DNA of 64,000 nt, from assembly GCA_022837635.1 (NCBI GenBank), contig JALHFY010000001.1, forward strand, positions 96,136 through 160,135, written 5' to 3'. This stretch comes from Candidatus Shapirobacteria bacterium (GTDB taxonomy: Bacteria > Patescibacteriota > Microgenomatia > UBA12405). This document shows positions 157 to 58,344 of this stretch, piece after piece. The position numbers were made by a program, and so were the translations under genes. The notes below the pieces were generated by a model. That model worked only from the letters and a program-made list of their open reading frames with translations, was not told where the DNA came from and ran no database searches. Numbering within the stretch: the stretch's first letter is position 1; each line of letters starts with the position of its first letter.

Positions 157-615
157 ATGGATAATAAAAAAATAATTGAACTAGTTAAAAAAATTAGAGC
201 AGAAACGGGTTTGGGAATTATAGAAATCAAGGCGGCTTTGGAAGAAGCCAAGGGTGATGAAAAAAAAGCTAAAGAAATTTTAAAAGAACAGGGTTTTGCT
301 AAAGCGGAAAAAAGAGCCGAAAAGGAAACTCATCAGGGAATAGTGGCTACGTATACCCATAGTACCGGTAAAATCGGAGTGATGGTGGAACTGTTGTGTG
401 AGACTGATTTTGTGGCTAAAAATGAAGAATTTGTGGCGGTGGCTAAGGATTTTTGTTTACAAATTGCGGCCATGGCACCAAAAGACAGCAAGGAGTTGTT
501 GGCACAGGAATTTGTGAAAGATCCGAGTCTAAAAATGAAAGATTTGGTAGTCGCTCTCAACTCCAAGTTTGGTGAGAATATCAAACTAGGTAGATTTGAA
601 AGGTTTGAAATATAA
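157..615 (+). CDS. tsf: Elongation factor Ts, minimal 152-aa form
   Basis: N-terminal UBA-like motif IKAALEEAKGDEKKAKEILKEQG and core TDFVAKNEEF are typical of EF-Ts. Lies next to frr. Confidence 0.85.
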   Translation: MDNKKIIELVKKIRAETGLGIIEIKAALEEAKGDEKKAKEILKEQGFAKAEKRAEKETHQGIVATYTHSTGKIGVMVELLCETDFVAKNEEFVAVAKDFCLQIAAMAPKDSKELLAQEFVKDPSLKMKDLVVALNSKFGENIKLGRFERFEI

Positions 616-785: not shown

Positions 786-1337
786 ATGATTGATTTTGCA
801 GAAGTCCGAGAGAGGATGGAAAAAATTTTGGCAATTTTTACTGAGGATATTGCTTCGATTAGAACCGGACGGGCGACAGCAGCCCTGATAGAGAATGTGA
901 CAGTGGAGGTGTATAACGGTCAAAAAATGAGATTAATGGAATTGGGTTCGATTACAGTGCCGGATGTGAGGAGTTTAGTCTTTGAACCTTGGGACAAGAC
1001 AGTATTGAGGGAAATCAATAATGGCATTCAGGCGGCCAATATTGGGATGATGCCGGTGGTTGATGGAGAAGTAATTAGACTGAGTTTACCAATGTTAACG
1101 GTAGAACAGAGAGAGGATTATGTAAAACTTTTAGGTCGGAAATTAGAGGGAGCCAGAGGGATGTTGCGAGACGCTAGAGCTGATTTTAGAAAAAAAATTA
1201 TGGATGCTAAAAACGATAAATTAATTTCGGAAGATGAATTCAAGAGAGATGAGGCGGAGTTGCAAAAAATAACTGATGAATTTATGAAGCGAATGGAAGA
1301 GTTGTCTCAAAAGAAAGAAGAGGAGATTAGGTCTTAG
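786..1337 (+). CDS. frr: Ribosome recycling factor
   Basis: Full-length similarity to RRF (VYNGQKMRLMELGSITVPDVRSLVFEPWDK, LSLPMLTVEQREDYVK). tsf-frr synteny supports the call. Confidence 0.9.
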   Translation: MIDFAEVRERMEKILAIFTEDIASIRTGRATAALIENVTVEVYNGQKMRLMELGSITVPDVRSLVFEPWDKTVLREINNGIQAANIGMMPVVDGEVIRLSLPMLTVEQREDYVKLLGRKLEGARGMLRDARADFRKKIMDAKNDKLISEDEFKRDEAELQKITDEFMKRMEELSQKKEEEIRS

Positions 1338-6489: not shown

Positions 6490-7034
6490 TGAAACAAAAT
6501 ATGAAAAATAAACTTTTTTGGCCAATGGTTGTTTTATCATTAGTTGTTTTGGTGGAAAGCGTGCTTTTCTTGTCGAAGACTAATAATAAAACAGAGAATA
6601 ATGTAGAACAAGTTTCTCCGACGGTAACAGTTAGTGAAACAGATTCGATTGTAGCAAAGGATAAGATAATAAATTTTTCTTGGCTTCAAAAAAGTAATAA
6701 TAAAATGACTTTGGTGTTGCAGAGTAGTGAAGATGTAGCGGTGGATGCTATTGATTTAGAGATGGCTTATGAAGGTGTCAAGGTTTTATCAGTGGTTAAT
6801 GCTGGTGTTTTACCTGAACCTTCAAAACCTATTATATCCCGCGATAAATCATTGATAGTGACTCATTATTTGATAGACGCGATGGGGGGTTTTAAGTTGA
6901 ATAAAAACGAGAAATATGAGTTGTTAGATATAAATTATTCTTTGATTGAAAGAAGTGAAGCGAAGTTTACTTTAGAAGAAAAGACTTTGGTGGTTGAAAG
7001 CGTTACTTCTAAAGTGTTACCTTATTCTATATGA
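6489..7034 (+). CDS. Small secreted cohesin-like domain protein
   Basis: N-terminal TM/signal segment. VDAIDLEMAYEGVKVLSVVNAGVL resembles the cohesin signature (fdlsYD.svLevvsv.aG). Confidence 0.4.
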   Translation: MKQNMKNKLFWPMVVLSLVVLVESVLFLSKTNNKTENNVEQVSPTVTVSETDSIVAKDKIINFSWLQKSNNKMTLVLQSSEDVAVDAIDLEMAYEGVKVLSVVNAGVLPEPSKPIISRDKSLIVTHYLIDAMGGFKLNKNEKYELLDINYSLIERSEAKFTLEEKTLVVESVTSKVLPYSI

Positions 7035-7696
7035 AAAGAGTAGTTCTCTTATTTTTGCTTGTTTTTTTGGTATCTGCCAGGGGTGTGGGTGCTGCTGGAC
7101 CGATGCTTAAGTTCGTGCCAACAAACACTACTTATGTGCCAGGACAGAATTTTGATGTAGTTTTGGGGGTGGATTCAGGTACTGAAAGGACGGCAGCGGT
7201 AGATGCTTGGGTGACTTTTGATCCGGCTCAGGCAGAAATTGTGTCAATAAGGGCAGCGACTAATCCAGCTTTTCCTTTTACAATAATGCAGAATGTTTAC
7301 AATGATACTGGTAAGTTTAATATTAGTTTTAATTCGACTGACAGCAGTAGCTTTGAAATGAAACCGTCAGTGGGTGACTTAGCGGTAATTACTGTTAAGC
7401 CTAAATCTAACGGAACTATAAATTTGAACTTTGTTTGTACTGATGGTTCACAAGTAGATTCAAATATTTTTAATTTTGATGGTAAAGAAGTGTTAGCTTG
7501 TTCTTTGAATCAAAATGGAGTTTATACGACTACAGGAGCTGCTCCGGTGGCAACAGCTGCTCCGACTTCTGCATCGGGAACAACAGTTCCGACTTCGACT
7601 GAGTTGCCGAAGACTGGAGCGGTGGAGAATACAATTGTGTTGATGGTCATGGGGATGATTGGAGTGTTATCTTCGCTAGCTTTGAGGAAATTATGA
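7031..7696 (+). CDS. Cohesin-domain surface protein with LPKTG sortase sorting signal
   Basis: Signal peptide. Cohesin-like core (AVDAWVTFDPAQAEIVSIRAATNP). C-terminal LPKTG, then a hydrophobic stretch (AVENTIVLMVMGMIGVLSSLAL) and an RKL tail: a canonical cell-wall sorting signal. Confidence 0.65.
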   Translation: MKRVVLLFLLVFLVSARGVGAAGPMLKFVPTNTTYVPGQNFDVVLGVDSGTERTAAVDAWVTFDPAQAEIVSIRAATNPAFPFTIMQNVYNDTGKFNISFNSTDSSSFEMKPSVGDLAVITVKPKSNGTINLNFVCTDGSQVDSNIFNFDGKEVLACSLNQNGVYTTTGAAPVATAAPTSASGTTVPTSTELPKTGAVENTIVLMVMGMIGVLSSLALRKL

Positions 7697-8364
7697 CCAA
7701 GAAACCGAATGTAAAAACGATTATTATTATCGTCATTATGCTTTTAGTGGGAGTTTTAGGAGTGTTGGGGATGACTACTGCCAAAACTTTTTTTAGTGGA
7801 GCATCGGCGGCGACTGAGCCTAAAAATGTATTGGCTAAGGCTAATGAGGATGGTAAGAGCGCGGTGGTTACTTGGGTGTCTGATAAAGCTAGTATGGGAA
7901 CTGTAGAATATGGAACGACTCCGGCGAGTCTACTTTTAAGAGCACCGGAAAGTGAATCTGTGACTAACCACTCAGTAACTTTAAGTTCACTTAAGGCTAA
8001 TACTAATTATTATTTCAGAATTAAGATAGGGGAAGAGGTTTTTGACAATAACGGAATTCCTTATTCTTTTAAGACTAAAGGGGCAACTCCTTCGGGAACA
8101 GTATTGCCAGTGATAACAGTAACACCGACGATGGTGGCTTCGACTGAAGCTAAACCAACTGTAGTCAGTGGGGTTTGTGATCGGACGACTGATTATAATA
8201 AAGACGGAGTGGTTAATAGCCTGGATTATTTGACCTGTCAAAGGGATCAGGGCGGAAAAGCAATTACACCAGTGCCAACAGGGAAATGTTCATCTCCTGG
8301 GGATTTGAATAATGATGGAGTAGTCAATAGTCTGGATGTACGCAAGTGTTTACAAAGTCAGTAA
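7693..8364 (+). CDS. Secreted FN3-like domain protein with two C-terminal dockerin repeats
   Basis: N-terminal TM/signal. FN3/PAP-like segment (TWVSDKASMGTVEYGTTP...NTNYYFRIK). Two near-perfect dockerin loops, DYNKDGVVNSLD and DLNNDGVVNSLD. Confidence 0.6.
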   Translation: MTKKPNVKTIIIIVIMLLVGVLGVLGMTTAKTFFSGASAATEPKNVLAKANEDGKSAVVTWVSDKASMGTVEYGTTPASLLLRAPESESVTNHSVTLSSLKANTNYYFRIKIGEEVFDNNGIPYSFKTKGATPSGTVLPVITVTPTMVASTEAKPTVVSGVCDRTTDYNKDGVVNSLDYLTCQRDQGGKAITPVPTGKCSSPGDLNNDGVVNSLDVRKCLQSQ

Positions 8365-15538: not shown

Positions 15539-16762
15539 ATGGGTAAAGCTTTAAGAAATACCAGTGTAGTCTTGGCTCTAATGGCGCTAAGCGCTTTGAT
15601 TGCTTTTAGAGCAGGTAGAATTAGTCAACAAAAAGTATTAGGAACAGGAATTGAGGAAAAATTGGATTTAAGTTTAATGTCTAAGGTACGGGCAAAATTG
15701 GAAGAGAGTTTTTTGGAAAAGACAAAAATTAATGATAAGGAAATGAGCTATGGAGCTATTGAAGGCATGGTAGCAGCTTTAGATGATCCTTATACTGTTT
15801 TTTTACCACCGAAAGAAAATAAAAGCAGTAATGATGATTTAGCAGGGGAATTTGGAGGGGTGGGGATTCAGTTGGGTTATAAAGAAGAGACTTTGGCAGT
15901 GGTGGCACCATTAGCTAAGACTCCGGCAGAAAAGGCGGGAATAGAAGCAGGGGATTTGATTTTGAAGATTGTAGATAAAGAGAATAATGTCAACAAGGAT
16001 ACAGTTGGTATCAGCCTAAATGAAGCGATGACATTGATTCGAGGTAAGGTTGGTAGCGAGGTGATTTTGACTCTTTATAGAGAAGGAAAAGCAGAAACAT
16101 TTGATGTAACTTTAACTAGAGACACAATTGTGGTGGCCAGTACTGAGTGGGAATGGGTAGAATTTGAGGGTAAGCAAGTGGCTTGGGTCAGATTGTATAA
16201 ATTTAGTGAACAAACGTTCAAAGATTGGCCTGAGGTAGTGAATAAAATAAATGAAGAAAAAGTTAAATTTGGGGCGAAATATGGAGGAATTGTGTTGGAT
16301 TTGAGGAATAATCCGGGCGGTTATTTAGATGCCAGTGTATTGGTGGCCTCTGATTTTTTGGAAAAAGGAGTGGTGGTGACTCAAGAGAGCAGTAATGGTA
16401 GAAAGGAGAATTACGAAGTAGATATAAAGAGAAGAAACTTGTTAAAGGATAAATTGGTGGTATTGATTAATGCTGGTTCGGCTTCGGCGGCAGAAATTTT
16501 GGCAGGATCTTTGCGGGATCATAGTCGGGCGAAATTGGTAGGGGATAAAAGTTTTGGCAAGGGAACGGTTCAGGAGCCAATAGATTTTGTTGATGGTTCA
16601 GGTTTGCATGTAACTGTGGCCAAATGGTTGTTGCCTTCGGGGAAAAATATTCATCATGATGGGGTGAAACCTGATGTAGAGATTAAATATGAAGCTGAAA
16701 AAGAAGAAGTAAAGATTGATAATCAGTTGAAAAAGGCCTTAGAGGTGTTACTCGGAGTCTAA
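15539..16762 (+). CDS. ctpA: Carboxyl-terminal processing protease (S41 family)
   Basis: N-terminal TM, PDZ region, and S41 catalytic region ([27 protein letters not shown]). Confidence 0.85.
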
Positions 16763-17455
16763 AACACTTAGTTCCAAGAGAAGATCACTCATATCACCGT
16801 CTAGAATCTTTTGCAGAGGAAAGTCTTTATCAATGCGATGGTCCTTGACTTGATTGCGGGGATAATTATAGGAGCGAATTTTATCAGCACGCATAGCCAA
16901 ACCGACTTTTTCGCGAGTGGTACCTAGTTTCTGAATGCGTTTATCTTCTTCCAATTGCCATAATTTACCCCGTAACAGGTCCATGGCAATAGCCCGATTT
17001 TGCTCTTGAGAGCGTTCCTGACGAACGGAAAAGGTGAGACCGGTGGGTTTGTGAAGAATACGAACGGCGGTTGACACTTTATTAACGTTTTGGCCACCAT
17101 GACCACCAGCACGAGAGGCGGTCATTTCGATATCGTCGGGATTAATAACAACGTCTTGAGCGGTAACTTGGGGATAAACAGCAATAGCAGCGGTAGAGGT
17201 TTGGAGACGACCACGTTTTTCAGTAGCAGGGATTCTTTGGACTCGATGAGTGCCGGTTTCCCATTTAAGTTGAGGAAAGGCATCGATACCTGAGACTTGC
17301 AAGATATTACTGTCAAGATACTTAACTTTCCAGCCGACTTTTTCGGCATAGCGAATGTACATACGCATGAGGTCTTCAAGCCAAAGTTCAGCTTCTTGAC
17401 CACCAGGGCCGACACGGAATTCTAAAATAGCAATGTTAGGATTAATAGCAGGCAT
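16748..17455 (-). CDS. prfA: Peptide chain release factor 1-type protein lacking N-terminal domain 1
   Basis: GGQ motif ([13 protein letters not shown]). PAT tripeptide ([18 protein letters not shown]) identifies RF1 rather than RF2. Begins at the equivalent of E. coli RF1 residue ~107 ([15 protein letters not shown]). Only 9 nt separate its start from rpmE. Confidence 0.8.
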
Positions 17456-17464
17456 AGAAAGAAG

Positions 17465-17710
17465 CTATTTTTTGCTTTTTTTAGCCTTTTTGGCTTCTTT
17501 GTAAGCAGTACCTTTAGCTTCTTTTTCTTTGAATTTTTCAATTCTACCCTTGGTATCGACAAATTTTTGTTGCCCAGTAAAGAAGGGATGACATTGACTG
17601 CAGACTTCAACTTCAATTTTTTCCAAAGTGGAACCGGTGGTAAATTTATTACCACAGGCACAGGTGACCTGACAGTTAGAGTAATATGTAGGATGAATCG
17701 CTGATTTCAT
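17465..17710 (-). CDS. rpmE: 50S ribosomal protein L31
   Basis: [28 protein letters not shown] is an L31 zinc-ribbon type. Confidence 0.9.
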
Positions 17711-17759
17711 AGCCAGTTATTATAACAGAAGTGGTGAAAATTGAATAGTCAGATATATT

Positions 17760-17795: not shown

Positions 17796-18035
17796 ATGTA
17801 TACAGTATCCATTTCCAGTCGAGGTTTAATGTATCTACCTTTGGCTTTACAAAAGGAACTTAATATTGAAAAAGAGTCTAAGGTTAGGTTAAAAGTGGTA
17901 GGTAAAGGTAAATTACAGGTGAGTCCTTTACAAGATATTTTTTCAATGGCAGGTAGTCTAAAATCGCCTAAAAACGAAGAATTTGATTTAAGTAAGTGGA
18001 GACAAGAACAAGAAAAAGAATATGCCAGGTTATAA
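17796..18035 (+). CDS. AbrB/MazE/SpoVT-type antitoxin (VapB-like)
   Basis: Small protein with swapped-hairpin-like N-terminus (VSISSRGLMYLPLALQKELNIEKESKVRLKV). Overlaps the downstream PIN gene by 14 nt. Confidence 0.6.
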   Translation: MYTVSISSRGLMYLPLALQKELNIEKESKVRLKVVGKGKLQVSPLQDIFSMAGSLKSPKNEEFDLSKWRQEQEKEYARL

Positions 18036-18423
18036 GTATATAGATACTAATGTTTTGATTAGGGTTGGGGAAGGGAAGGAAGAATATATAAAGTGGTTAC
18101 AGGCTAAGGAAGAAAAAGATGAAAAAATGATGGTGGCTTCGATAGTAATGGCGGAGGTAATTTGGGTACTAAAGAGTTTTTATAAGAAAAATAGGGAAGA
18201 AATAAATCAGTTTATGGACAGTATTGTGGCAACTCGTTGTCTGCAGTTGAGAAGTAAGCATGATATTAAAAAAGCCTTGGAATTATATAAAAAGAGTGGA
18301 ATTAAATTTACAGACTGCTTAATTGCTAGTTACATGAAAGCGGAGGATGTGATCTATAGTGATGACTTGGATTTTGAGAAATTGGGGGTTAAGAGACGAG
18401 AGATAAGAGCTGATCAGGACTAA
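18022..18423 (+). CDS. vapC: PIN-domain toxin (VapC-like)
   Basis: PIN acidic residues: IDTNVLI (N-terminal Asp), FTDCLIA and YSDDLDF. Confidence 0.75.
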   Translation: MPGYKYIDTNVLIRVGEGKEEYIKWLQAKEEKDEKMMVASIVMAEVIWVLKSFYKKNREEINQFMDSIVATRCLQLRSKHDIKKALELYKKSGIKFTDCLIASYMKAEDVIYSDDLDFEKLGVKRREIRADQD

Positions 18424-33230: not shown

Positions 33231-33273
33231 ACGAATATCCTATAATTTTGATATAGAAATATCCTATATTTTT
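33231..33273 (+). repeat. Two direct copies of ATATCCTATA(A/T)TTTT, matching the upstream copy at 31563-31577
   Basis: ACGAATATCCTATAATTTTG..ATATCCTATATTTTT downstream of xer, versus ACGATATATCCTATAATTTTC upstream. The second copy overlaps the gyrA stop codon. Confidence 0.5.
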
Positions 33274-35933
33274 TTAGGGTTAGAGTCGGACTCAGGGTTG
33301 ACAGGTAATACAGTTAAAGTACTGACTTTATCATCGCTTTTAAGTCTCATGAGAATCACTCCTTTAGTGTTTCTGGATAAGGTAGGAATGTTTTTAAGAG
33401 GTAGTTTAATAGTAGCGGCCTTGCGACTGACAAAAAGGACTTGATCGTCATTTTCAGTGACAATAGCGGCGCCGGAGATATTGCCAGTTTTTTCAGTAAG
33501 ATGGGAAACTTTAACACCTACTCCACCGCGTTTTTGGAGAGGATAAAGATAGGCATCAGAACGTTTACCAATACCATTTTCAGTAATAGTTAAGAGATGA
33601 CGGAAAAACTTTTTACTGGTTTTTTCGGCTTTGGCAGCGGTGACACTTTGAGGCAGAACATCCAAGCCAACTAAATAATCATTTTCTTTAAGGTTAATAC
33701 CTCGAACGCCGCGGGTGTGTCGACCCATAGGACGAGCATCAGTTTCATTGAAGCGAATACATTTACCTTGATAGGTAACCATAAAAATTTGGTCATTGCC
33801 GGAGCTGAGTTTGGCCCAAATTAATTCATCGTGAGGATCAAGTTTGATGGCGGCTAGGCCGGATTGGCGAACATTTTTGAACTTATCAATAGCAGTTTTT
33901 TTGATGACACCTTTTTTAGTAGCCAGGATAATATAATTAGCGGAATGTCCCTTACTGACGGGTAAAATAGCTTGAACAGTTTCTCCTTGAATAATATTGA
34001 TTAGGTTAATAACGGCTTGACCTTTGGACTGACGACTAGATTCATTGATGTCCCAAACTTTGATTTTGAAACAGCGACCTTTGTTGGTAAAAATCAATAA
34101 ATCATCATGGGTATCGACAAAGAGCATGTTTTCGACTTCGTCTTCGGCTTTGGTAGTCATACCACTGACACCGATACCGCCACGACGTTGAGTCCGGTAG
34201 GTACCCATAGCCACTCGTTTGATATAACCACCGCGGGTAAGAGTTACTAGCGTGGCTTCATTGGGAATAAGGTCTTCGTCAGTGAAGTCTTCAAGAGATT
34301 TGGCGTAAATTTTGGTTTTACGGTCGTCACCATATTTGTTAGTAATTTCCTGGTTTTCAGCTTTTAATACAGCAATCATTTTTTCAGGTACGGTTATAAT
34401 GGCGGTGAGATTGGCAATACTTTGTTGGATATTTTGGTATTCTTCGTCAATTTTTTGACGTTCCAAACCTGAGAGCTTACGCAATTGCATATCTAAAATA
34501 GCTTGGGATTGAAGATCAGTAAAGCCGAATTTCTCCATTAATTTTAATTTAGGATCTTCATCGGCTTTAGTGGCTCTGATGGTTTTAATAACCTCGTCGA
34601 TGATATCCAAGGCTTTTTTGAAGCCTTCCAAAATATGGTTACGAAGATAAGCACTTTTAAGTTCAAAAATAGAGCGACGGCGGATGATACTTTCGCGGTG
34701 TCTAAGGAATAAAAGGAGAATTTGTCTGAGGTTGAGAGTTTGAGGAATGCCGTTGACTAAGGCTAAAATGTTGGCTGAATAGGAAGATTGAAGAGGTGTA
34801 TATTTGTAAAGTTTATTGAGAACAGCTTTAGGTTTGCCGTGCTTTTTAATTTCGGCAACAACTCGGATACCATGTCGATCGGATTCGTCTCGAAGATCGG
34901 AAATACCGATAATTTTTTTATCAGTGACCAATTGGGCGATTTTCCGAATCATTTCGGATTTATTAACTTGATATGGGATTTCGGTAATAACAATTCTGAT
35001 TTTGCCGGATTTAGTTTCTTCGATAGTGGCTTTACCGCGGAGAACAAACTTACCTCGGCCGGTGTTGTACATCTCTAAAATACCGGTTTTTCCGTAAATT
35101 TCTCCGGCGGTGGGAAAATCAGGACCGGTGACAAATTGGGCTAAATCTTCACTGGTAACAGCAGTCTCCACGTTAAAAGAAAGTCTTTCTAGATCTTTGA
35201 CCGGTTTTAAGACTATTTCCTGAGTAGTTAAGTTTTTTTCTAAGATGGGATTGATTTCTAGAGGAGCCTCTTCTTTTTCCAGAGTGCAATTATTGAGAAG
35301 ATGGTCAATTCCGGCACAAAGTTCCTTGAGATTGTGAGGTGGAATTCTGGTGGCCATACCGACAGCAATGCCATCAGCTCCGTTTAAGAGTAGATTGGGA
35401 ATGCGGGCCGGGAGAACTTCTGGTTCCTGGAGAGTAGCGTCAAAATTGTCTTTCATGGGAATAGTGTCTTTATCCAGGTCGGCAATCATTTCCGGAGCAA
35501 TTTTACTCATTTTGACCTCGGTGTAACGCATGGCAGCCGGAGGATCGCCATCAACAGAGCCAAAATTTCCTTGACCGTTAATCAGGGGATAACGCAAAGA
35601 AAAGTTTTGAGCTAAACGGACTAGGGAGCCGTAAACGGCGGCATCACCATGGGGATGGTATTTACCCAAGACTTCACCGACCACTTTAGCTGATTTAGTA
35701 AAGCGGCCGCTAGGTCCCAGATTCATTTGTTCCATGGCATAGAGAATACGACGATGAACTGGCTTAAGACCGTCTCGGATATCAGGTAAAGCTCTTTCAA
35801 CAATGACAGACATGGCATAATCCAGATAGGATTTTTCCATTTCTGGGATAATATCTACCGGAATGATTTTACCGATATTTCCAGTTGAATTGGTTTTATT
35901 AGGAGTATTGTCAGTCATATTTTTAGACATCAA
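33264..35933 (-). CDS. gyrA: DNA gyrase subunit A
   Basis: Active-site region [28 protein letters not shown] and a C-terminal beta-pinwheel. Confidence 0.95.
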
Positions 35934-38012: not shown

Positions 38013-38546
38013 TTATTTTTTAACTTTTTCCAAGGACTTGAAGGCGATAAGGGCGGTGGCTAGAAGAACATTGAGGGAAATATTGACACCATACATTGGG
38101 ATTTCAATAATTTGATTACAGAGTTTGAGATTATCGGCAGAGATGCCGGCGACTTCACTACCGGCGACGATAGCCAAAGGAAAAGGATAGTGGTAATGAC
38201 GATAGTCAACAGTGTTTGGACCTTGCTCACAGGCAATAATATGGAAGCCATCTTTTTTAAGTTGTTTGAGACAGTCGGTGGTGGAATTAAAATGTTGCCA
38301 AGGTACCCATTTCCAGGTGCCGACAGAAGCGCGATGAATTTTGAGATTGGGAGGGGTGACAGTGGGGCCACAAAGGTAGATTTTTTGGGCACCTATGGCA
38401 TCGGCTAAACGAAAAAAGGAACCGATATTGTAGGTATCTAAAACATTATCTAAAACTAAGACTAAAGGTTGGCGCGGGATTAGACGTTGTTGTTTTTGCG
38501 ACTTCCCTACCCTGCTCTGACGTAATTGGTGGGAATTGAGTTTCAT
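38013..38546 (-). CDS. SpoU/TrmH-family RNA 2'-O-methyltransferase with basic N-terminal extension
   Basis: SPOUT motifs (LVLDNVLDTYNIGSFFRLADAIGA; IVAGSEVAGIS). The first ~30 codons overlap a GC-rich repeat copy. Confidence 0.75.
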   Translation of the reverse strand: MKLNSHQLRQSRVGKSQKQQRLIPRQPLVLVLDNVLDTYNIGSFFRLADAIGAQKIYLCGPTVTPPNLKIHRASVGTWKWVPWQHFNSTTDCLKQLKKDGFHIIACEQGPNTVDYRHYHYPFPLAIVAGSEVAGISADNLKLCNQIIEIPMYGVNISLNVLLATALIAFKSLEKVKK

Positions 38547-39253
38547 AATTTTTTACCTACAAATCTAATTAGATTGTCATTATCATCGTGGTATATTTTG
38601 CCATTTTCGTCAAAAATGATTATTTGATACTTATTTTCTATTAGTTGACGAAAAGATGATAGTGAGAAAAATCTTTTCTTAATACCAACAGGACTCAGAA
38701 AAAACTCTGTTTCGATTGATTTTGATTGAAGTACTTCGGGATCATTGATGGTATTTACCAGAGCAGCAAAGATACCACCTGTTTTTAGAATACGATTAAT
38801 TTCATCGAATAATTTTTTGGTGGTGGTATTGTCAAAATAATGAAGAGCTAGATGAGAATAAACAATATCAAATGAGGAGTTATTAAAAGGTAATTTTTTA
38901 CTTAAATCTACAATTTGAAAATCAATGTTTTTATCTTTTAAGTTTCTTTTAGAAAAATCCAAAGCATTGACAGCAAAATCGGTACTGGTAACTTGAAAAC
39001 CATTATCCGCAAAAAAACAACTATCTTGACTTTGGCCTGCACCAAGATCAATCAGTTTTCCTTTTTTTGGTAGTAAATTAATGATTTGTTCAGCAAAAAT
39101 AGTTGGTTTAGTTATCCAATATTTTTTATTGTATTCCCGGTGTCTTTGTTCCCAGTAATCAATTGCTTTCATAGTATATTTTACATTAAAAAAGCCCCGC
39201 AATGACGGGGCTTTGATAGTTTTTAATCTAGCAACCGCCGGCTGAAGCGGCAC
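38543..39253 (-). CDS. Class I SAM-dependent methyltransferase
   Basis: Motif I LIDLGAGQSQDSCFFADNGFQVTSTDF. Confidence 0.7.
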   Translation of the reverse strand: MPLQPAVARLKTIKAPSLRGFFNVKYTMKAIDYWEQRHREYNKKYWITKPTIFAEQIINLLPKKGKLIDLGAGQSQDSCFFADNGFQVTSTDFAVNALDFSKRNLKDKNIDFQIVDLSKKLPFNNSSFDIVYSHLALHYFDNTTTKKLFDEINRILKTGGIFAALVNTINDPEVLQSKSIETEFFLSPVGIKKRFFSLSSFRQLIENKYQIIIFDENGKIYHDDNDNLIRFVGKKL

Positions 39254-42531: not shown

Positions 42532-42933
42532 CTAAAAATTTGCTTGTTCATAAAATTGATTAAGACTGAAAAAGAGGGCTTCACTGTGAAGATAAATTAG
42601 ACTATCACAAAGAGATTGTAAGTGAGCTTTTTGAGACTCAGCAATGACGGGTATGGCGACAATAATTTTGAGTCGAGGGTAAAGTTTGCGGAGGGCTAAA
42701 ATTGGTTTTTCAAAATCAGTAGATTGACTGAGTCCGAGGTCACTGATGATCAATAAATTGGAGTCAACAGGAGCCTGTCGTTGTTCATCTAAAAAGTCTG
42801 ATAATTTTTGTCGGTATTGGTCCAGGTGAGGGTGGGAGGAATTGAGACAAACAACAGTTTTAGCACCAGGAAAATTATCCAAAATTTTTTTAGCCAAAAT
42901 TTGGGCGGAGTCAGAGTAGTTTTTGAAAATCAT
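42532..42933 (-). CDS. Hypothetical protein
   Basis: ORF only. Alpha/beta-like composition. Confidence 0.3.
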   Translation of the reverse strand: MIFKNYSDSAQILAKKILDNFPGAKTVVCLNSSHPHLDQYRQKLSDFLDEQRQAPVDSNLLIISDLGLSQSTDFEKPILALRKLYPRLKIIVAIPVIAESQKAHLQSLCDSLIYLHSEALFFSLNQFYEQANF

Positions 42934-44896
42934 TTTCGGTGATAATTTTAACGCCTAATTTTTTGGCGGCAATTAATTTAGCAGAGTTGGAGCTAGGGTC
43001 ATTGGTGATGAGGTAATTGGTGTGTCGGGTGACAGTGGAGTGAAATTTACCGCCGGAATTTTCAATTTGTTGAACCAAGTCAGCACGGGGTTGAGAGAGA
43101 GTGCCGGTGATGGCAAAGTTGAGACCAGAGAGGGATTTTTTTTGGGCTGAAGGAGTGCTTAAAGTCGTATTGACAAGTATCGATATAATCCATTCTTGCC
43201 TGAAATTTATACCATCAATAATTTTTTGAGCCAAGGTTTTTTGAAAACCTTTTTGAGATAATAAATCTTCAAGAGTTAAATTTAATAGCTTGTCTGGAGT
43301 GTCAAAACCGACCAAAATTAATTGTTGAATGCGGGCAGCAGAGAAATTGGGAATGGCGGCAGCATTGAAAACTTCTTTGAGACTGAGACTTCTTTTGGAA
43401 TCGATTTGGGCCAGGATATTTTTGGCAGATTTTTCGCCGAGATTATCTAAATTGGCAATGTCGTGAAGTTGGAGTTTATAAAAATCGCCCGGTTGTTTAA
43501 CTTTGCCGGAGTGGTAGAGTTTTTCAATAGTTTTATCTGAGAGACCAAGGATATTCAGCCGATCACAGAAAAGTTTGAGAGAACCCAGGATTTGGGGTAA
43601 ACAATGATGGCCATTGGGACACTCTAAGTTTTTGTCAGCACGGTGTAAAGGAGTTTGACAGGCGGGACAATGGGTGGGAATAGTAACGTGGCCGGGGGTA
43701 ACCTTGGTAACCACACTTTCAATATGAGGAATGACATCACCACGACGAGATATTTCAATAATGTCACCCAGATTAAGATTTTTTTTGATGACTAAATCAT
43801 AGTTACCCAGAGAAGCAAAGTTGATGACCGCGCCGGAGATTTCCACTGGTTCAATTTCGGCAACGGGGGTGACGGAGCCCAAAGGGCCGACTTGCCAGAT
43901 AATTTTTTGAATTACACTTTGGTTGGAGTCAGCTGGGAATTTATAAGCCACTTGGTATTTAGGGCGGCCATTTTTTTCACCCAGACTTTGGGCAATATTC
44001 AGATTATTGATTTTGACGACTAAACCATCGATGTCAAAGGGGTAGTCTCCCCTATCTCGGCGTAAAAAATTTTGATAAATTGTTTCCACTTCTTCAAAAC
44101 TGTGACAGAGATGTGATTCCACCGGAGTAAAGCCCAGGTTTTTAAGCAAGTTTATTTTTTCTAGTTCAGTGTCAAGTGTGGGAGTGTTGACAGAAATGTC
44201 GGTAGCGTATAAAGAGCAAAGTTCAGAATACATACCATCCAGGCGTTGAGATAGACCGGAGGCGGCATTGCGAGGATTGGAATAAAATCCCTCCGGTCCC
44301 GATAAAATTGTTTTTTTTACGAGTTGATTTAATTTAATAAAGTCTTTTTTAGTCACCAAGATTTCACAGCGAACGGAACCGGTAAATTTTTTGGCAGTGC
44401 TTAAAACTACTTGTTTCATTTTGACTACATTTTGAGTAATGACATCGCCGGTGTGACCGTCACCTCTGGTAATGGCGTCTACAAGTTGGCCATTTTGATA
44501 TTCGATTTCCAGAGAAATACCGTCACATTTGGGCTGGACCAGAAAATCTTCCCCAATTTCCCTCTTATCCCCTTTTGACAAAGGGGAGGATAAAATTTTC
44601 TTTTTAAGTTCAAAGTAATGGACCAGATCGGAGTAGGTACTGACTTTGTTTTGAGAACCCATAGTGAGAGAGTGGGCTTTTTTCTCCCAGCCGGTGTCGA
44701 AATTGTCATGACCGACTTTGGAAAAGAGCCGATGATAGGGTGCTTTTTTCTTTAAGACAGCCTCAAGAGTATCGTAGGTGTGGTCGTCCATAATGGGCCG
44801 ACCGGTAGTGTAATAAGCTTTTTTGGCGTCGACTAAAATTTCACCTAGTTTTTGAGGAGAAATGCTTTCCAAGTCAAAATCAGCAAGAGAGTACAT
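42911..44896 (-). CDS. ligA: NAD-dependent DNA ligase
   Basis: Adenylation KxDG (QPKCDGISLEIEY), Zn-finger Cys4 (CPACQ...CPNGHHC), HhH and C-terminal BRCT. Confidence 0.9.
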   Translation of the reverse strand: MYSLADFDLESISPQKLGEILVDAKKAYYTTGRPIMDDHTYDTLEAVLKKKAPYHRLFSKVGHDNFDTGWEKKAHSLTMGSQNKVSTYSDLVHYFELKKKILSSPLSKGDKREIGEDFLVQPKCDGISLEIEYQNGQLVDAITRGDGHTGDVITQNVVKMKQVVLSTAKKFTGSVRCEILVTKKDFIKLNQLVKKTILSGPEGFYSNPRNAASGLSQRLDGMYSELCSLYATDISVNTPTLDTELEKINLLKNLGFTPVESHLCHSFEEVETIYQNFLRRDRGDYPFDIDGLVVKINNLNIAQSLGEKNGRPKYQVAYKFPADSNQSVIQKIIWQVGPLGSVTPVAEIEPVEISGAVINFASLGNYDLVIKKNLNLGDIIEISRRGDVIPHIESVVTKVTPGHVTIPTHCPACQTPLHRADKNLECPNGHHCLPQILGSLKLFCDRLNILGLSDKTIEKLYHSGKVKQPGDFYKLQLHDIANLDNLGEKSAKNILAQIDSKRSLSLKEVFNAAAIPNFSAARIQQLILVGFDTPDKLLNLTLEDLLSQKGFQKTLAQKIIDGINFRQEWIISILVNTTLSTPSAQKKSLSGLNFAITGTLSQPRADLVQQIENSGGKFHSTVTRHTNYLITNDPSSNSAKLIAAKKLGVKIITENDFQKLL

Positions 44897-45002: not shown

Positions 45003-46133
45003 TTAGACATTACTTAGGCAATAATAAGCACCCTTGGTGGAGCCACGTTTTTGGACGACTTTATCATCAATCAGTTTTTTGAGGTCACGCCAAATAGTGT
45101 CATCACTGACCATGGGTAAAAGGGATTTGGCGTCGGGCATGCGGAGACCACCGAATTGTTGCATGTATTCGACTAATTTAATTTGTCTTTCACTAAGATG
45201 AATTTGTTTACCACCTAGTTTTTGTTTGAATTTAAGGTCCCGAGAGAGGGTTTGAACTTTGTCTTTGACCCGAGACAATTCAATGGCTAGGACTTCGGTG
45301 TAATAGGTTACCCAATCAGTAAGGTCGCGTTCAAAGATATCGCTGTCTTTTTCGTGGGTTGATTGAAGAGTGTTGTAATAGGTTTCAGCGTTACGATCAA
45401 AATATTCCTCAATAGAGAAAAGACGGCGAATGTCATAACCTTCAACATAAAGAGGTAAAATACCGAAAGCTCGGGAAACACGGCCATTACCTTCGACAAA
45501 AGGGTGGATGGCGACTAAAATGTATTGGGTAATAGCGGCACGGATAGCGGGATGAATCTCTCTGGATTTGGGCTCGTTGAGCCAGGCAACAAAGTCAGAC
45601 ATTAAATATGGGACTTCAATGGCTGGAGGTGGTCGATGAGCAATTTCTCCGGTTTGGGTATTTTTTAAGACGACTTGTTGGCGACGATATTTACCAATAT
45701 CGGCTTCGTCGATGATTTTGGTAGTAGTTAGTTCGTGGATTTTTTTAATAATGCTTTCGCTATAAAAAAAAGGTCGGTTTTTAGGATCGACTCCCTCTTT
45801 ATATTTTTCCTCAGGTAAGGGTAAACCAGCATCAAAGGTGGCCCAGATTTCTTCAAGGTAATTAATAACATTGCGGTAGTTGATGACTTCCTGAATATCC
45901 CGATCGGCAGCGGTAACTTGGCGGCCTTCGACCAATTTGGCCACGTCTTGGTAAGTTAGGTCATTACCTTCGATACGAGTACCATAGTGAACAGTCCGGA
46001 TGACAGCTTCCTGTTGAAATTGTTTTTCATAGGCAGGAATTAAGGGAGCCTCATCGATAACCGCTTTAGCGGCTTCGAGAGTACCGATGTTTTTTAGAAT
46101 CTGGTTATTAATGGTAAATATCGGAGAAAACAT
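45003..46133 (-). CDS. Fic/DOC-family protein with C-terminal wHTH
   Basis: Canonical Fic motif HPFVEGNGRVSRAF. TRIEGN segment near the N-terminus resembles the auto-inhibitory (S/T)xxxE(G/N) helix. Confidence 0.8.
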   Translation of the reverse strand: MFSPIFTINNQILKNIGTLEAAKAVIDEAPLIPAYEKQFQQEAVIRTVHYGTRIEGNDLTYQDVAKLVEGRQVTAADRDIQEVINYRNVINYLEEIWATFDAGLPLPEEKYKEGVDPKNRPFFYSESIIKKIHELTTTKIIDEADIGKYRRQQVVLKNTQTGEIAHRPPPAIEVPYLMSDFVAWLNEPKSREIHPAIRAAITQYILVAIHPFVEGNGRVSRAFGILPLYVEGYDIRRLFSIEEYFDRNAETYYNTLQSTHEKDSDIFERDLTDWVTYYTEVLAIELSRVKDKVQTLSRDLKFKQKLGGKQIHLSERQIKLVEYMQQFGGLRMPDAKSLLPMVSDDTIWRDLKKLIDDKVVQKRGSTKGAYYCLSNV

Positions 46134-46190: not shown

Positions 46191-46683
46191 AAAACCCTAT
46201 CCCCTCCCCCTTTCCCTTGACAGGGCAAGGGGTTTATATTTAATGTAATATAAAATACACATGAAAAATGGAATTGTAGTTGAATTAAAAACAAGAAAAT
46301 TTCATGTTCGATATTTGGAAAAATTAACTAGAGAATCCAGATTGCATCGTCGAAATCAAACGGAAGCAGAAAAAATAGTTTGGGAACAATTATTGCGACG
46401 AAAACAATTAGGAGTTAAGTTTGTACGTCAAAAAGCTGTTGATAGGTTTATATTAGATTTTTATTGTGCTGATTTATGTTTGGCAATAGAAATTGATGGA
46501 GATTATCACTTAAAGATTAAAGATAAAGATGATTATCGAGACAAGTTTTTACAAGCTTGTGGGATTCGAACTCTAAGATTTACTAACACGGAAGTATTAA
46601 CTGATTTAAATAAAGTTAAATCTACAATTTTGGAATTTATTCACCCTGCCCTGTCAAGGGAAGGGATGGGGAAGGGTTTTTAA
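46191..46683 (+). mobile_element. DUF559 endonuclease ORF bracketed by ~44-bp imperfect inverted repeats
   Basis: Left IR 46191-46234 (AAAACCCTATCCCCTCCCCCTTTCCCTTGACAGGGCAAGGGGTTT). Right IR 46641-46683 (reverse complement AAAAACCCTTCCCCATCCCTTCCCTTGACAGGGCAGGGTG). The right IR encodes the ORF C-terminus and stop. Confidence 0.5.
46261..46683 (+). CDS. DUF559 (Vsr-like restriction-endonuclease-fold) domain protein
   Basis: Pattern QTEAEKIVWEQLLRRKQLGVKFVRQKAVDRFILDFYCADLCLAIEIDGDYH...IRTLRFTNTEV is typical of DUF559. Confidence 0.7.
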   Translation: MKNGIVVELKTRKFHVRYLEKLTRESRLHRRNQTEAEKIVWEQLLRRKQLGVKFVRQKAVDRFILDFYCADLCLAIEIDGDYHLKIKDKDDYRDKFLQACGIRTLRFTNTEVLTDLNKVKSTILEFIHPALSREGMGKGF

Positions 46684-47306
46684 CTCAACAAAAACCAATC
46701 TAGGGCGCTTTTGGGGTCAACATTGGCTTCAATTAGTTCAAGAGAATGAATGAGGGCGGAGAGTTTTTTGGCGCTTTGAGCTGAGGGTTGTTGAATTAAT
46801 TCGATTTGCCAGGCAGTTATTTGTTCTAGAAGTAGATCTTTAATTTCACTTTTGTCGGTGTAAAGAGTTGGGGCTAAATTTAGATCTTTTTTAACTTGGC
46901 CACTGGTTTTAATGGGAGTGACCGATTTTGTCGGTTGAGTTTCAACGACTTTGATTTGGTGACAACGAGAGATGATAGTAGGTAGCAGTCGAGCGGGATG
47001 GGTAGATGTCAGAATAATATAGTTGTTTTCACCGGGATCTTCGAGGGTTTTTAAGAGAGTATTTTGAGATTCTAAATTAAGCTGGTGAGCTTCAGGGATA
47101 AAAATAATTTTACTGGGATGGTTGTAGGCTTTTTGAGAGAGAAATTTTTTGAGTTTACGGACGGCTTCGATACTATAATCAGTGAGTTCAAAAAGATCGG
47201 GGTTATTGTCAGGAAGATGGTTTAATTTGGAAAAAATTTCCAGTGCTTTTTGACGTGAAGATTGGGGGGAAGAGCTGATAATTAGGCTTGAAGGAAAGGG
47301 TGTCAT
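46680..47306 (-). CDS. holB: DNA polymerase III delta-prime subunit, short form lacking Walker A region
   Basis: LLKTLEDPGENNYIILTSTHPARLLPTIISRCHQIKV matches the delta-prime sensor/SRC region. Confidence 0.6.
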   Translation of the reverse strand: MTPFPSSLIISSSPQSSRQKALEIFSKLNHLPDNNPDLFELTDYSIEAVRKLKKFLSQKAYNHPSKIIFIPEAHQLNLESQNTLLKTLEDPGENNYIILTSTHPARLLPTIISRCHQIKVVETQPTKSVTPIKTSGQVKKDLNLAPTLYTDKSEIKDLLLEQITAWQIELIQQPSAQSAKKLSALIHSLELIEANVDPKSALDWFLLS

Positions 47307-47328: not shown

Positions 47329-49068
47329 ATGCCTGCCGAATTAAAAAATTATAAAAAACTGTCAGAACTCCTTTTAGATAAGGGGGTGATTACCAAGGCT
47401 CAGGCTGAAGAAATCAGCTTGAAGATGGTCAAGAGTGGTGAAAGTGAAGAGGCGATTATTCGGTCAATGAGATTATTTCCGGAAGAAGATTTCCTGAGAT
47501 ATAAGGCAGAATTCTTAAAAATTCCCTTTGTAGATTTGGATGAGGTTGGTTTTTCACCGGAGGCTTTGTCATTAGTGGCCCAGAGTGTGGCGGAAAAGTA
47601 TCATTTGGTCCCCTATCGCATGGATCCCAAGAACAAAATTCTTGAAGTGGCGATGGCTAATCCTCTGGATTTGGAGACAATCGAATTTTTGGAAAAGAAG
47701 ACTGGTCTGCGGATTAAAGCAGTGATGGCGTTGGAGTCAAAAATTGACGCTTTTATCCAAGAAAAATATGAGAGAGAAAAAGGAATTACCTCCGAGGTGA
47801 GCAAGGCTTTGGATGAAAGAAAGGCTGATGAGGCTAAGATTGAAGAGGAAAGCGCTAAAGCGGTTACAACAGAAGCTCCAATTGCCAAAATTGTGAATAC
47901 GATTTTGGCATACGCAGTTCGTTCTCGGGCTTCTGATGTACATATTGAACCGTTAGAAGAAAATGTTAGAGTTAGATATAGAATTGATGGTATTTTACAG
48001 GAAAAATATGTGTTACCTCGAAATGTGCTGGAGGCGGTGGTTTCCCGGATTAAGATTTTAGCTAACTTAAAAATTGATGAAAAAAGAATCCCTCAAGATG
48101 GACGTTTTAATATCAATGTTGATGGTAATGAAGTGGATTTGCGGGTATCAACTTTACCTGTGTCTTATGGTGAAAAGGTGGTAATGCGCTTACTGCGGAA
48201 ATCTTCAAAGGTGCCGTCTTTACCTGATTTAGGCTTAAGAGGTTTAGCTTTGAAGAATTTGATTGAGTCAATTGAGAGACCACACGGAATTATTATTGTT
48301 TGTGGACCAACAGGTTCAGGTAAAACCACGACCCTCTATTCAATTTTAGACAAGGTGGCGACACCAAAAGTCAATGTAGTTACGATTGAAGATCCGGTGG
48401 AGTATCAAATGAAGGGAGTTAATCAGGTTCAAGTGAATGTCCAAGCAGGTTTAACTTTTGCCTCGGCTTTGAGGTCATTTTTACGGCAGGATCCAAATAT
48501 CATGATGGTAGGAGAAATTCGGGATACAGAAACGGCGGAGCTAGCAATTAATGCGGCTTTAACTGGGCATTTAGTGTTTTCAACTTTACACACCAATGAT
48601 GCAGCGGGAGCACCACCGCGGATGTTGGATATGGGGGTGGAGCCATTTTTGTTAATTTCAGCTTTGACTTGCGTGGTGGCTCAGCGGGTACTGAGGAGAC
48701 TATGCACTGAATGTCGTCAATTTGTAGAAATTGATCCAGGAACATTGAGTGAGCTCAAAGAAACTTTGGGACCGATTTATGGGATGCTTGAAGAGAAGGC
48801 TAAAAAAGAAGGTAAGGTGTTAAAACTGCCTAAGGCAGTAGGGTGTCCAAAATGTAATAATACCGGTTATATGGGGAGAATTGCTATTTATGAAGTAATG
48901 CCGATTACAGAAAAAATTAGTAAAATGATAGTAGAGCATGCGGCGGCATCGGCGATTCAAAAACAGGCAATTGAAGAAGGGATGTTGACCATGAAACAAG
49001 ATGGTTACGTTAAAGTTTTAGAAGGAATTACTACCGTAGATGAAGTGCTACGGGTAGCACAATATTAA
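47329..49068 (+). CDS. pilB: Type IV pilus assembly ATPase PilB (GspE family)
   Basis: GspE N-terminal domain, Walker A GPTGSGKTTTLYS, Asp/His boxes, tetracysteine (CTECRQ...CPKCNNTG). Confidence 0.9.
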   Translation: MPAELKNYKKLSELLLDKGVITKAQAEEISLKMVKSGESEEAIIRSMRLFPEEDFLRYKAEFLKIPFVDLDEVGFSPEALSLVAQSVAEKYHLVPYRMDPKNKILEVAMANPLDLETIEFLEKKTGLRIKAVMALESKIDAFIQEKYEREKGITSEVSKALDERKADEAKIEEESAKAVTTEAPIAKIVNTILAYAVRSRASDVHIEPLEENVRVRYRIDGILQEKYVLPRNVLEAVVSRIKILANLKIDEKRIPQDGRFNINVDGNEVDLRVSTLPVSYGEKVVMRLLRKSSKVPSLPDLGLRGLALKNLIESIERPHGIIIVCGPTGSGKTTTLYSILDKVATPKVNVVTIEDPVEYQMKGVNQVQVNVQAGLTFASALRSFLRQDPNIMMVGEIRDTETAELAINAALTGHLVFSTLHTNDAAGAPPRMLDMGVEPFLLISALTCVVAQRVLRRLCTECRQFVEIDPGTLSELKETLGPIYGMLEEKAKKEGKVLKLPKAVGCPKCNNTGYMGRIAIYEVMPITEKISKMIVEHAAASAIQKQAIEEGMLTMKQDGYVKVLEGITTVDEVLRVAQY

Positions 49069-50133
49069 ATGCATTCAAAAACAGAAGAAATTTGTAAATT
49101 AGCGATTGCTAATGGGGCTTCAGACATTCATTTACAAATGGGTCAAGTACCCAAGATGAGAGTCCATGGTTCACTTATTGATATTGGTACCTTTGGAGTT
49201 ATTGATGATCCGGAGTTAATTTTATCCTTGCTTTCGGAAAAACAAAGAGAAGAATTTATAGTAGAAAAGGAAATGGATTTGTCAGTAACTTTAGATGATT
49301 ACCGCTTTCGGGCTAATGTTTTTCACCAAAAAGGTCAATTAGCCTCTGCCCTGAGAGTGATTGTTGATCAGATTCCGGAACTTGGTAGTTTAGGATTACC
49401 AGAAGTGGTTAAAAGTTTTACCAAGTTAAGACAAGGTTTTGTTTTAGTTACTGGTCCGACAGGTCAAGGAAAATCGACTACTGTGGCTTCAATCTTGAAT
49501 GAAATTAACAAGGAAAACTCGGTAAGTATTGTAACAATTGAGGATCCGATTGAGTATGTGATTAGACCAATTAAATCCTTGGTTTCACAACGTGAATTAG
49601 GGGAAGATACTTTGAGTTTTGATAGGGCCTTAAAATCTTCATTAAGACAGGATCCGAATGTGGTTTTTGTGGGGGAAATGCGAGATTTAGAAACGATACA
49701 GTTGGCTTTGACAGTGGCGGAAACCGGACATTTGGTCTTTTCGACTTTACATACTAATTCAGCAGCTCAGTCGATTGATAGAATTATTGACGTTTTTCCT
49801 GAAGGGAGTAAACCCCAAATTAGAATGCAGTTAGCATCGGTATTGTCGGCAGTAGTGTCACAGCGGTTGATACCGACCACTGATGGTCAGCGAACAGTGG
49901 CAGCTGAAATATTGATAACTAATCCGGCTTTGGCTAACACTATCCGAGAAGGAAAAACTTTTATGATTGATAATATTATTCAAACTGGGGCCGATCAGGG
50001 AATGGTGGGGTTGGAAATGTCACTGGCGAGATTGGTTAAGAGTGGTAAAGTTGAAGAGCGTTTGGCGGCAAGTTTTGCCTTGAGACCGGAAGAATTTCTT
50101 AATAGTTTAAGACTTCTAAAGAAAAATGGCTAA
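49069..50133 (+). CDS. pilT: Type IV pilus retraction ATPase PilT
   Basis: Walker A GPTGQGKSTT. PilT-type core without an N-terminal GspE domain. Confidence 0.85.
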   Translation: MHSKTEEICKLAIANGASDIHLQMGQVPKMRVHGSLIDIGTFGVIDDPELILSLLSEKQREEFIVEKEMDLSVTLDDYRFRANVFHQKGQLASALRVIVDQIPELGSLGLPEVVKSFTKLRQGFVLVTGPTGQGKSTTVASILNEINKENSVSIVTIEDPIEYVIRPIKSLVSQRELGEDTLSFDRALKSSLRQDPNVVFVGEMRDLETIQLALTVAETGHLVFSTLHTNSAAQSIDRIIDVFPEGSKPQIRMQLASVLSAVVSQRLIPTTDGQRTVAAEILITNPALANTIREGKTFMIDNIIQTGADQGMVGLEMSLARLVKSGKVEERLAASFALRPEEFLNSLRLLKKNG

Positions 50134-51340: not shown

Positions 51341-51385
51341 AAATGCCACAATGGTATCAAGTTAGTTAAAAATTTCTTAAAAAGA

Positions 51386-52018: not shown

Positions 52019-52040
52019 GGTACTAAATCCACCCCTTAAT

Positions 52041-52075
52041 CCCCTCCTTTGAGTAAAGGAGGGGAGTTTTTTTTG
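52041..52075 (+). terminator. Intrinsic terminator: CCCCTCCTTT-GAGT-AAAGGAGGGG followed by T8
   Basis: Perfect 10-bp GC-rich stem plus a U-tract, read directly, just downstream of the major pilin. Same element as 44921-44954. Confidence 0.75.
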
Positions 52076-52086
52076 TACAATAGGCT

Positions 52087-52839: not shown

Positions 52840-52860
52840 GAAAAGGTTACAATAGTTTAT

Positions 52861-53406: not shown

Positions 53407-53408
53407 GT

Positions 53409-53930: not shown

Positions 53931-53931
53931 T

Positions 53932-57826: not shown

Positions 57827-58342
57827 ATGAGAATAAGGTTAGTGCGCGTATTGATACTTCTTAATCTCTTTCTCCTGGTAGGAATAGTTTTTCTGCCAAA
57901 TATTACCAAAATAAAGCCTAAACCAGCTACATCACTAGGTTTTTTATGGGTAAACAGGTTTAAATTAGCTATGGATTTACGTAATGTTTCTAAAGTATTT
58001 AATAAAACAAATACTAATCGCAATAATTTTTTTAAACATATTGGTGAGGATCTTAAATTTGCCGAGCTGGATAATCAAGGCATTAGAATGGGTGAAACTG
58101 GAATTACATATAAATGTGAAAGATACAGTGATACCAGTCGCGTCATTATTTCACTTGACAAAAACAAGATAAACCATGACAAAAGTTTATTAGCTAAAAG
58201 AATTTATCTTACCTTGCTTGAATGTAAACTAAGCAAAGTTAACTTAACTGATAGTTCTATTCAACAAGATGAAAGTATAATCAATTACATAATCAATCTT
58301 GTTCTTAAACAGAATAAATTAAGTCCAATTGTCATTTTCTAA
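57827..58342 (+). CDS. Hypothetical membrane-anchored protein within pilus locus
   Basis: N-terminal TM (LVRVLILLNLFLLVGIVFL). No recognisable domain. Confidence 0.35.
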   Translation: MRIRLVRVLILLNLFLLVGIVFLPNITKIKPKPATSLGFLWVNRFKLAMDLRNVSKVFNKTNTNRNNFFKHIGEDLKFAELDNQGIRMGETGITYKCERYSDTSRVIISLDKNKINHDKSLLAKRIYLTLLECKLSKVNLTDSSIQQDESIINYIINLVLKQNKLSPIVIF

Positions 58343-58344
58343 TT

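Follow-up and report, generated by a model that had tools for sequence, protein, structure and literature searches.

A predicted RF1-type release factor without domain 1, encoded next to rpmE in a Shapirobacteria-like bacterium

Our analysis concerns a 64,000-nucleotide stretch of DNA (hereafter, the window) from a Candidatus Shapirobacteria bacterium (assembly GCA_022837635.1, contig JALHFY010000001.1, positions 96,136 to 160,135 of the forward strand), and within it a short gene, prfA-short, the product of which aligns with peptide chain release factor 1 (RF1) from the start of domain 2 onward. To our knowledge, domain 1 is found in the release factors of class I (RF1 and RF2) in well-studied bacteria, and its role has been probed only by deletions made in the laboratory. 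The gene is on the reverse strand directly downstream of rpmE, encoding ribosomal protein L31, and its 3' end shares 15 nt with a convergent gene for an S41 peptidase (15539..16762). The features on which the argument depends are listed here; the residue equivalents come from an alignment with Escherichia coli RF1, the numbering of which fits the published landmarks (PAT 188, GGQ 233, H197, E155/H156).

17465..17710, minus strand: rpmE (L31, 81 residues), Pfam Ribosomal_L31 positions 1-63 of 65, TAG stop at 17465-17467
16748..17455, minus strand: prfA-short, a 235-residue RF1 with domains 2, 3 and 4 only, ATG start and TAA stop, from the list of open reading frames
17393..17404, minus strand: G18-G19-Q20-E21, equivalent to E. 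coli G120-G121-D122-E123, the tip of helix alpha5 that reads U1 of the stop codon
17309..17314, minus strand: D48 and S49, flanking the site at which 10 residues, E. coli RF1 151-160 (ASEGEHGGYK), are deleted
17222..17230, minus strand: P76-A77-T78, the PxT 'tripeptide anticodon' of RF1, equivalent to E. coli P188-A189-T190
17201..17203, minus strand: Q85 (CAA), where E. coli RF1 has His197
17090..17098, minus strand: G120-G121-Q122, the catalytic GGQ, invariant

Domain content and family assignment of the short gene

By alignment, M1 of prfA-short corresponds to E. coli RF1 residue ~103, at the boundary between domains 1 and 2, in the linker ahead of the first domain-2 strand. The Pfam, NCBIfam and PDB alignments all begin at this boundary: the PCRF family (102 bits, above its gathering score) is matched on residues 8-91 by only profile positions 101-194 of 194; the RF-1 domain is complete on residues 101-207 (112 bits, also above its gathering score); in the two NCBIfam prfA equivalog models, positions 106-338 of 347 and 114-346 of 361 are matched by residues 9-229; and the PDB alignments start at residue 87 of Thermotoga maritima RF1, residue 105 of the Thermus thermophilus protein and residue 111 of the E. 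coli protein. On these alignments, domain 1 is wholly absent from the predicted 235-residue product. An initial annotation made from the DNA sequence had proposed an RF1 with a PAT motif and without the entire domain 1, starting at E. coli residue ~107, with no space upstream for a missing exon or frameshift because the L31 stop lies 9 nt away; the alignments bear out the first point, the start that we obtain is close enough to the second, and the coordinates agree with the third. Since a complete rpmE ends 9 nt upstream of the ATG, no upstream start, exon or frameshifted domain 1 fits, and these candidates were rejected. A sequencing error that removed an upstream start, which had been named as a way for the proposal to fail, is likewise ruled out by the proximity of rpmE and by the presence of the same gene in independent assemblies.

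A domain 1 might also be supplied separately, either from an open reading frame of its own or through an L31-RF1 fusion produced by read-through of the rpmE UAG, as 9 nt separate this stop codon from the prfA ATG in the same reading frame, an arrangement that the two closest relatives share. However, in loci L005 and L094 the spacer holds additional in-frame stop codons, the two genes are in frame in 26 of 53 loci, which is not above the background of ~43% for adjacent genes at gaps of 35 nt or less, and L31 does not resemble domain 1. Neither tblastn with 44 domain-1 sequences nor a domain-1 hidden Markov model found a separate domain-1 reading frame in any of the six frames of the window (best E ~0.4-0.7). 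We set the fusion aside on the extra spacer stops and the background-level in-frame fraction, and regard separate supply of domain 1 in either form as very improbable.

Among the class I release factor families, RF1 is the one to which the remaining protein is most similar, as judged by sequence comparison and in line with the assignment in the initial annotation. Against ~261 bits for prfA, the NCBIfam prfB model (TIGR00020) gave 195.7 bits (cut-off 370), and the tripeptide is PAT and not the SPF of RF2; PrfH (TIGR03072) gave 66.3 bits (cut-off 166.65), and ArfB 44.6 bits (cut-off 100), the latter with a match confined to residues 99-134. The best PDB match was T. maritima RF1 residues 87-321 (E = 5e-62), all top PDB matches were RF1, and the top Foldseek match of an AlphaFold2 model was T. 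thermophilus RF1 on the 70S ribosome. The lack of domain 1, as in PrfH, together with the weak PrfH and ArfB matches, could point to a factor for ribosome rescue or damage response of the PrfH or ArfB kind instead of a stop-codon terminator. We consider this highly unlikely, as both scores are far under their cut-offs and under the prfA score, domains 2 and 4 are complete with PAT and stop-codon contacts while ArfB is without such domains, and the upstream gene is rpmE and not the PrfH partner gene.

The residues expected for decoding and catalysis are largely in place. Across 42 family members there is no variation at G18, G19, E21, Q73, P76, T78, T86, G120, G121 or Q122. Of the five E. coli stop-codon contacts G120, E123, Q185, H197 and T198, four are kept (as G18, E21, Q73 and T86) and one is changed, with Gln85 at the position of His197. 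The roles of these contacts, including the alpha5 tip, have been described for E. coli RF1, in which His197 stacks on the second base of the stop codon (PMC3974865). From these residues we infer release activity at UAA and UAG.

Conservation, orthology and shortening of the gene in relatives

In a search space of 5.8 billion proteins, for which all homologue counts cover the best 120 matches, these matches (69-100% identity) were 213-249 residues long; 119 of them measured 232-249 residues and one (P0031) 213. Their N-terminus reads MP-x-x-N/D in all 120, with V as the first residue in two, and the hosts that are named are Shapirobacteria or Woesebacteria. An identical 235-residue gene is present in four independent assemblies. 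The ratio of nonsynonymous to synonymous substitution rates (dN/dS) was 0.030 and 0.029 against relatives that are 96% and 94% identical, which is strong purifying selection, of a degree that one expects for an essential translation factor. An artefact of assembly or annotation, or a pseudogene, is suggested by the unusual length and nothing more; it is refuted by the four identical independent assemblies, by at least 120 clusters of similar length, by the dN/dS of 0.03 and by the intact catalytic and decoding motifs, and we give it practically no weight.

To place the gene among its relatives, we compared the best 80 related loci from species-representative genomes, which were found by a few exact peptide patterns. 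The gene directly upstream of RF1 was rpmE in 53 of the 80, with full, half or no domain 1 in the RF1 that follows. The lengths before domain 2 fall into tiers: ~100-110 residues (about 105) in Chloroflexi and a few genomes of the Candidate Phyla Radiation (CPR); ~59-78 residues in Levybacteria, Curtissbacteria, Chisholmbacteria and many further Patescibacteria; and 0-4 residues in Shapirobacteria, Roizmanbacteria, Woesebacteria, Blackburnbacteria and others. A handful of RF1s have 12-21 residues, and some of these N-termini are probably over-called start codons. Coverage of the Pfam PCRF profile follows the same tiers, with matches that start at profile position 14 (L017), at 42-45 (L033 and L011) or at 101 (the window, L005 and L018) and end at 194. 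In a neighbour-joining tree of domains 2-4, which is indicative only, the RF1s without domain 1 form one large clade, composed of Woesebacteria, Blackburnbacteria, Shapirobacteria and Roizmanbacteria, and a small group (L014/L015). Comparison with homologues of related genomes thus supports the initial annotation, in that the short form is clade-wide and relatives carry full and half forms at the rpmE-prfA position. On the strength of the length tiers, the Pfam coverage, the tree and the rpmE-prfA synteny, domain 1 seems to have been lost in situ from the housekeeping gene, first half of it and then the rest.

As a separate observation, seven RF1-like proteins (P0140, P0160, P0172, P0191, P0214, P0252 and P0266) start at domain 2 yet measure 327-422 residues; they may be RF1s without domain 1 that carry C-terminal extensions or fusions, or they may be gene-calling artefacts.

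Besides domain 1, two further reductions, which were absent from the initial annotation, affect contacts of the factor with the ribosome complex. The 10-residue deletion removes the domain-2 loop that carries Glu155/His156, residues which in E. coli RF1 touch the anticodon stem-loop of the P-site tRNA (PMC6076264). This deletion is common to almost all Microgenomates but is not found in Curtissbacteria-type sequences. As it is also present in the full-length RF1s of L009, L017, L023 and L070, it is older than the loss of domain 1, and its origin together with that loss is ruled out. The second reduction is the His197 to Gln change, which is present in 100 of the best 120 homologues, whereas His occupies this position in all 75 other RF1s from related loci and in 139 of 150 diverse representatives. 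In E. coli, the His197Ala substitution raised KD from <0.003 to 0.35 uM, with a koff of 175 per s and 5-fold slower release (PMC3974865).

Taken together, we consider it likely that the short gene is the orthologue of prfA and has the housekeeping role in a Shapirobacteria-like bacterium (Microgenomates, CPR), its product being trimmed to the tRNA-sized RF1 core and serving as the terminator at UAA and UAG. Several points weigh against this view. The prfA equivalog scores are under their cut-offs (261.6 vs. 400 for NF001859 and 261.2 vs. 423.25 for TIGR00019), since nothing in the protein aligns to the first ~105 positions of the models. The AlphaFold2 model, with a mean predicted local distance difference test (pLDDT) score of 66.8, is of medium confidence because the alignment is shallow, and it was used to confirm the fold only. 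The relatives are named 'peptide chain release factor-like protein' and not RF1 by NCBI. Our inventory of release factors covers the 64-kb window and ~10 kb on each side. Release activity is predicted from sequence for the short-RF1 family as a whole, and the idea of weak binding and fast release developed below is extrapolated from E. coli mutants to a different ribosome.

Some of these points would also suit an accessory paralogue, with a full-length RF1 elsewhere performing termination and the short copy specialised or redundant: the inventory, which turned up no second RF1, prfB, prfC or prmC, spans only the window and ~10 kb on each side; the NCBIfam score is under the prfA equivalog cut-off; and His197 to Gln could mean relaxed or altered function. 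On the other side, the gene occupies the ancestral rpmE-prfA position common to relatives with half- and full-length RF1, nests inside the Microgenomates prfA tree and has a dN/dS of 0.03; no two of the best 80 loci come from one assembly, albeit a weak test given the few exact peptide patterns; and the genomes are very small (contigs of 0.5-0.95 Mb), so that a duplicate would be costly to keep. We therefore find an accessory paralogue unlikely. The initial annotation had named a paralogue of the ArfB/RF-H kind, with a full-length prfA elsewhere in the genome, as what would refute it; the conserved rpmE-prfA position and the strong purifying selection make such a paralogue unlikely, with the search for a full-length copy reaching as far as the inventory does.

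Expression of the rpmE-prfA pair and other genes of the window

Two further features bear on how the short gene may be expressed.

17456..17464, minus strand: 9-nt pyrimidine-rich spacer CTTCTTTCT from the rpmE stop to the prfA start, with no Shine-Dalgarno motif
17719..17727, minus strand: extended -10-like TGtTATAAT ending 8 nt before the rpmE ATG, read off the sequence and not reported by a consensus scan that requires a -35 hexamer

The arrangement of TAG, 9 nt and ATG recurs in the two closest relatives, and the lack of a Shine-Dalgarno motif in the spacer implies that translation of prfA is coupled to that of rpmE. Because TGtTATAAT ends 8 nt before the rpmE ATG, the sequence suggests a leaderless bicistronic rpmE-prfA transcript, of which prfA would be the second gene, translated by re-initiation 9 nt past the rpmE UAG. 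As to the codon itself, TAG is the stop codon read by RF1 only. The rpmE stop ahead of prfA is TAG in 31, TAA in 22 and TGA in none of the 53 related loci, vs. a background there of 23% TAG and 18% TGA, although the loci are phylogenetically non-independent. Translation of prfA could thus be coupled to RF1-dependent termination at the rpmE TAG, which we offer as a lead and not as a finding. Across the window, a GGAG/GAGG/AGGA motif lies upstream of the start in just 13 of 63 genes, and a TATAAT box is found 6-12 nt before the start of many genes (e.g. rpmE, 42911..44896, 45003..46133, 46680..47306 and 57827..58342), a pattern that suggests widespread leaderless mRNAs in this genome.

Among 67 long open reading frames of the window, 7 end in TAG (including rpmE) and 18 in TGA. 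As TAG is used as a real stop codon, RF1 activity is needed, and as TGA is used, so is the activity of RF2 or an equivalent. An extreme version of the broader proposal given below, in which RF2 is missing too and the short RF1 reads UGA, strikes us as very improbable. The initial annotation had found it unusual that no hemK/prmC adjoins the gene. This was not borne out, as no methyltransferase reading frame with an NPPY motif was found in the window, nor within 10 kb on either side of prfA in 80-84 related loci, including those with full-length RF1. A methyltransferase at 38543..39253 was considered as PrmC and rejected, being of the generic Methyltransf_11 type without NPPY. A recycling factor is also encoded in the window.

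786-1337, plus strand: ribosome recycling factor (RRF), 183 residues, adjoining EF-Ts

EF-Ts itself (157-615, plus strand; Pfam EF_TS) has just 152 residues, compared with ~280 in E. coli, and may be another reduced translation factor. Between rpmE and hisS lies a VapBC-like pair (17796-18423, plus strand) of a small antitoxin-like reading frame and a PIN-domain toxin; the PIN gene shares sequence with the 3' end of the oppositely oriented hisS, and the pair is absent at this position in the relatives L092 and L093. Adjacent reading frames of 221 and 223 residues (7031-8364, plus strand) carry cohesin and dockerin / purple-acid-phosphatase N-terminal domains; cohesin and dockerin are interaction modules of the cellulosome type, which in this case occur in the genome of a CPR bacterium. 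A long type IV pilus cluster (47329-63471, plus strand) comprises PilB-like and PilT-like ATPases, PilC, a prepilin peptidase, PilM and at least six pilin-like reading frames of the N-methyl type, and several large reading frames in it have no Pfam match (391 and 662 residues). GyrA (33264-35933, minus strand) has 889 residues, and the match to its DNA_topoisoIV domain is split in two, which hints at an insertion within the catalytic domain.

Proposed mechanism and comparison with known systems

The best reading of the short RF1 is, in our opinion, a working release factor for UAA and UAG that would no longer dock on the bL12/uL11 stalk. Domains 2 and 4 would bind the decoding center and read the stop codon through the alpha5 tip (G18, E21), Q73, P76-A77-T78 and T86, while domain 3 would put G120-G121-Q122 in the peptidyl-transferase center, where the peptidyl-tRNA would be hydrolysed. 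Without domain 1, there would be no docking by the C-terminal domain of bL12 and by uL11 at the stalk base. Because domain 1 and two other stabilising contacts are lost, binding would probably be weaker and departure from the ribosome faster and spontaneous, with little dependence on RF3; RRF (786..1337) would then take over recycling.

The role of domain 1 is debated between coupling to RF3 and recruitment assisted by bL12 and uL11. Cryo-EM and kinetics showed that the bL12 C-terminal domain bridges RF1 domain I to uL11, giving domain I a docking role, and on bL12-depleted ribosomes RF1 bound 150-fold slower with an apparent affinity that fell from 9 to 210 nM (PMC6076264). As for RF3, Mora et al. 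2003 is cited in one paper for domain 1 being needed to stimulate nucleotide exchange on RF3 (PMC1586002) and in another for RF3 still recycling RF1 without domain I, a paper in which no RF1-RF3 contact was seen (PMC6076264). The initial annotation had taken the loss of domain 1 to suggest altered termination or recycling, or independence of RF3; the RF3 part is weaker than it was put there, as the two accounts differ.

We would venture a broader proposal, tentatively and with rather less confidence than the orthology itself: in a large Microgenomates clade (Shapirobacteria, Roizmanbacteria, many Woesebacteria and Blackburnbacteria), the sole RF1 may be a tRNA-sized, stalk-free factor, in which the missing P-tRNA loop and, within the Shapirobacteria family, the replaced His197 would be co-adaptations that speed spontaneous dissociation, with recycling that needs neither domain 1 nor RF3. 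A clade without domain 1, apparently lost from full to half to none, would amount to a natural experiment on which ribosome contacts are dispensable in stop-codon decoding, and it predicts that stalk proteins and RF3 content co-vary across such genomes. The short RF1 may also serve as a compact scaffold for structural and synthetic-biology work.

The main paper on ribosome reduction in CPR bacteria describes loss of uL30, bL9, uL1 and rRNA segments and does not mention release factors (PMC9297842); the short RF1 would extend this pattern to translation factors. In open-access papers and bioRxiv, we found no description of a natural RF1 without domain 1 in CPR bacteria. The RF1 family, its chemistry and a working engineered equivalent without domain 1 are already known; the clade-wide natural loss of domain 1, together with the P-tRNA-loop and His197 losses, appears to be previously undescribed. 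The labels of the 'release factor-like' kind arise because curated models score short RF1s under their cut-offs, and marker sets built on curated prfA models may count prfA as missing in these lineages.

Among known systems, canonical bacterial RF1 (E. coli, T. thermophilus and T. maritima) shares with the window protein domains 2, 3 and 4, with ~40-53% identity over the aligned region, as well as PxT, GGQ, the G..E of the alpha5 tip and the equivalents of Gln185 and Thr198; the rpmE-prfA position is common to related CPR and other lineages. The window protein differs from it in having no domain 1 (~100 residues), the 10-residue loop deletion, Gln in place of His197 and a score under the equivalog cut-offs. 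The half-domain-1 RF1s of Microgenomates (~290-318 residues; Levybacteria, Curtissbacteria and Chisholmbacteria; L011, L033, L013 and others) belong to the same lineage, have the same rpmE-prfA synteny, in most cases have the same domain-2 loop deletion and in all cases have the same sequence context around GGQ; however, the C-terminal helical hairpin of domain 1 (PCRF from profile position ~42) and His197 persist in them, neither of which is kept in the window protein.

PrfH (RF-H) is also a natural class I homologue with GGQ and without domain 1, but its decoding region is divergent and its genes always have a conserved partner gene directly upstream (PMC1586002), whereas the window protein has the decoding residues of RF1 and follows rpmE. 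ArfB, ICT1 and C12orf65 share the GGQ domain 3 fold and the reduced size, but they are without the codon-reading domains 2 and 4 and place a C-terminal tail in the mRNA channel, in contrast to the complete domains 2 and 4 and the lack of a tail in the window protein. There is also an engineered precedent: E. coli RF1 without domain 1, with the same architecture of domains 2-4 only, recognises stop codons, is active in peptide release in vitro and works in vivo (Mora et al. 2003, cited in PMC1586002). It was made by deletion in the laboratory from a factor adapted to domain 1, whereas the window RF1 is natural, fixed in its clade and accompanied by two more losses of contact.

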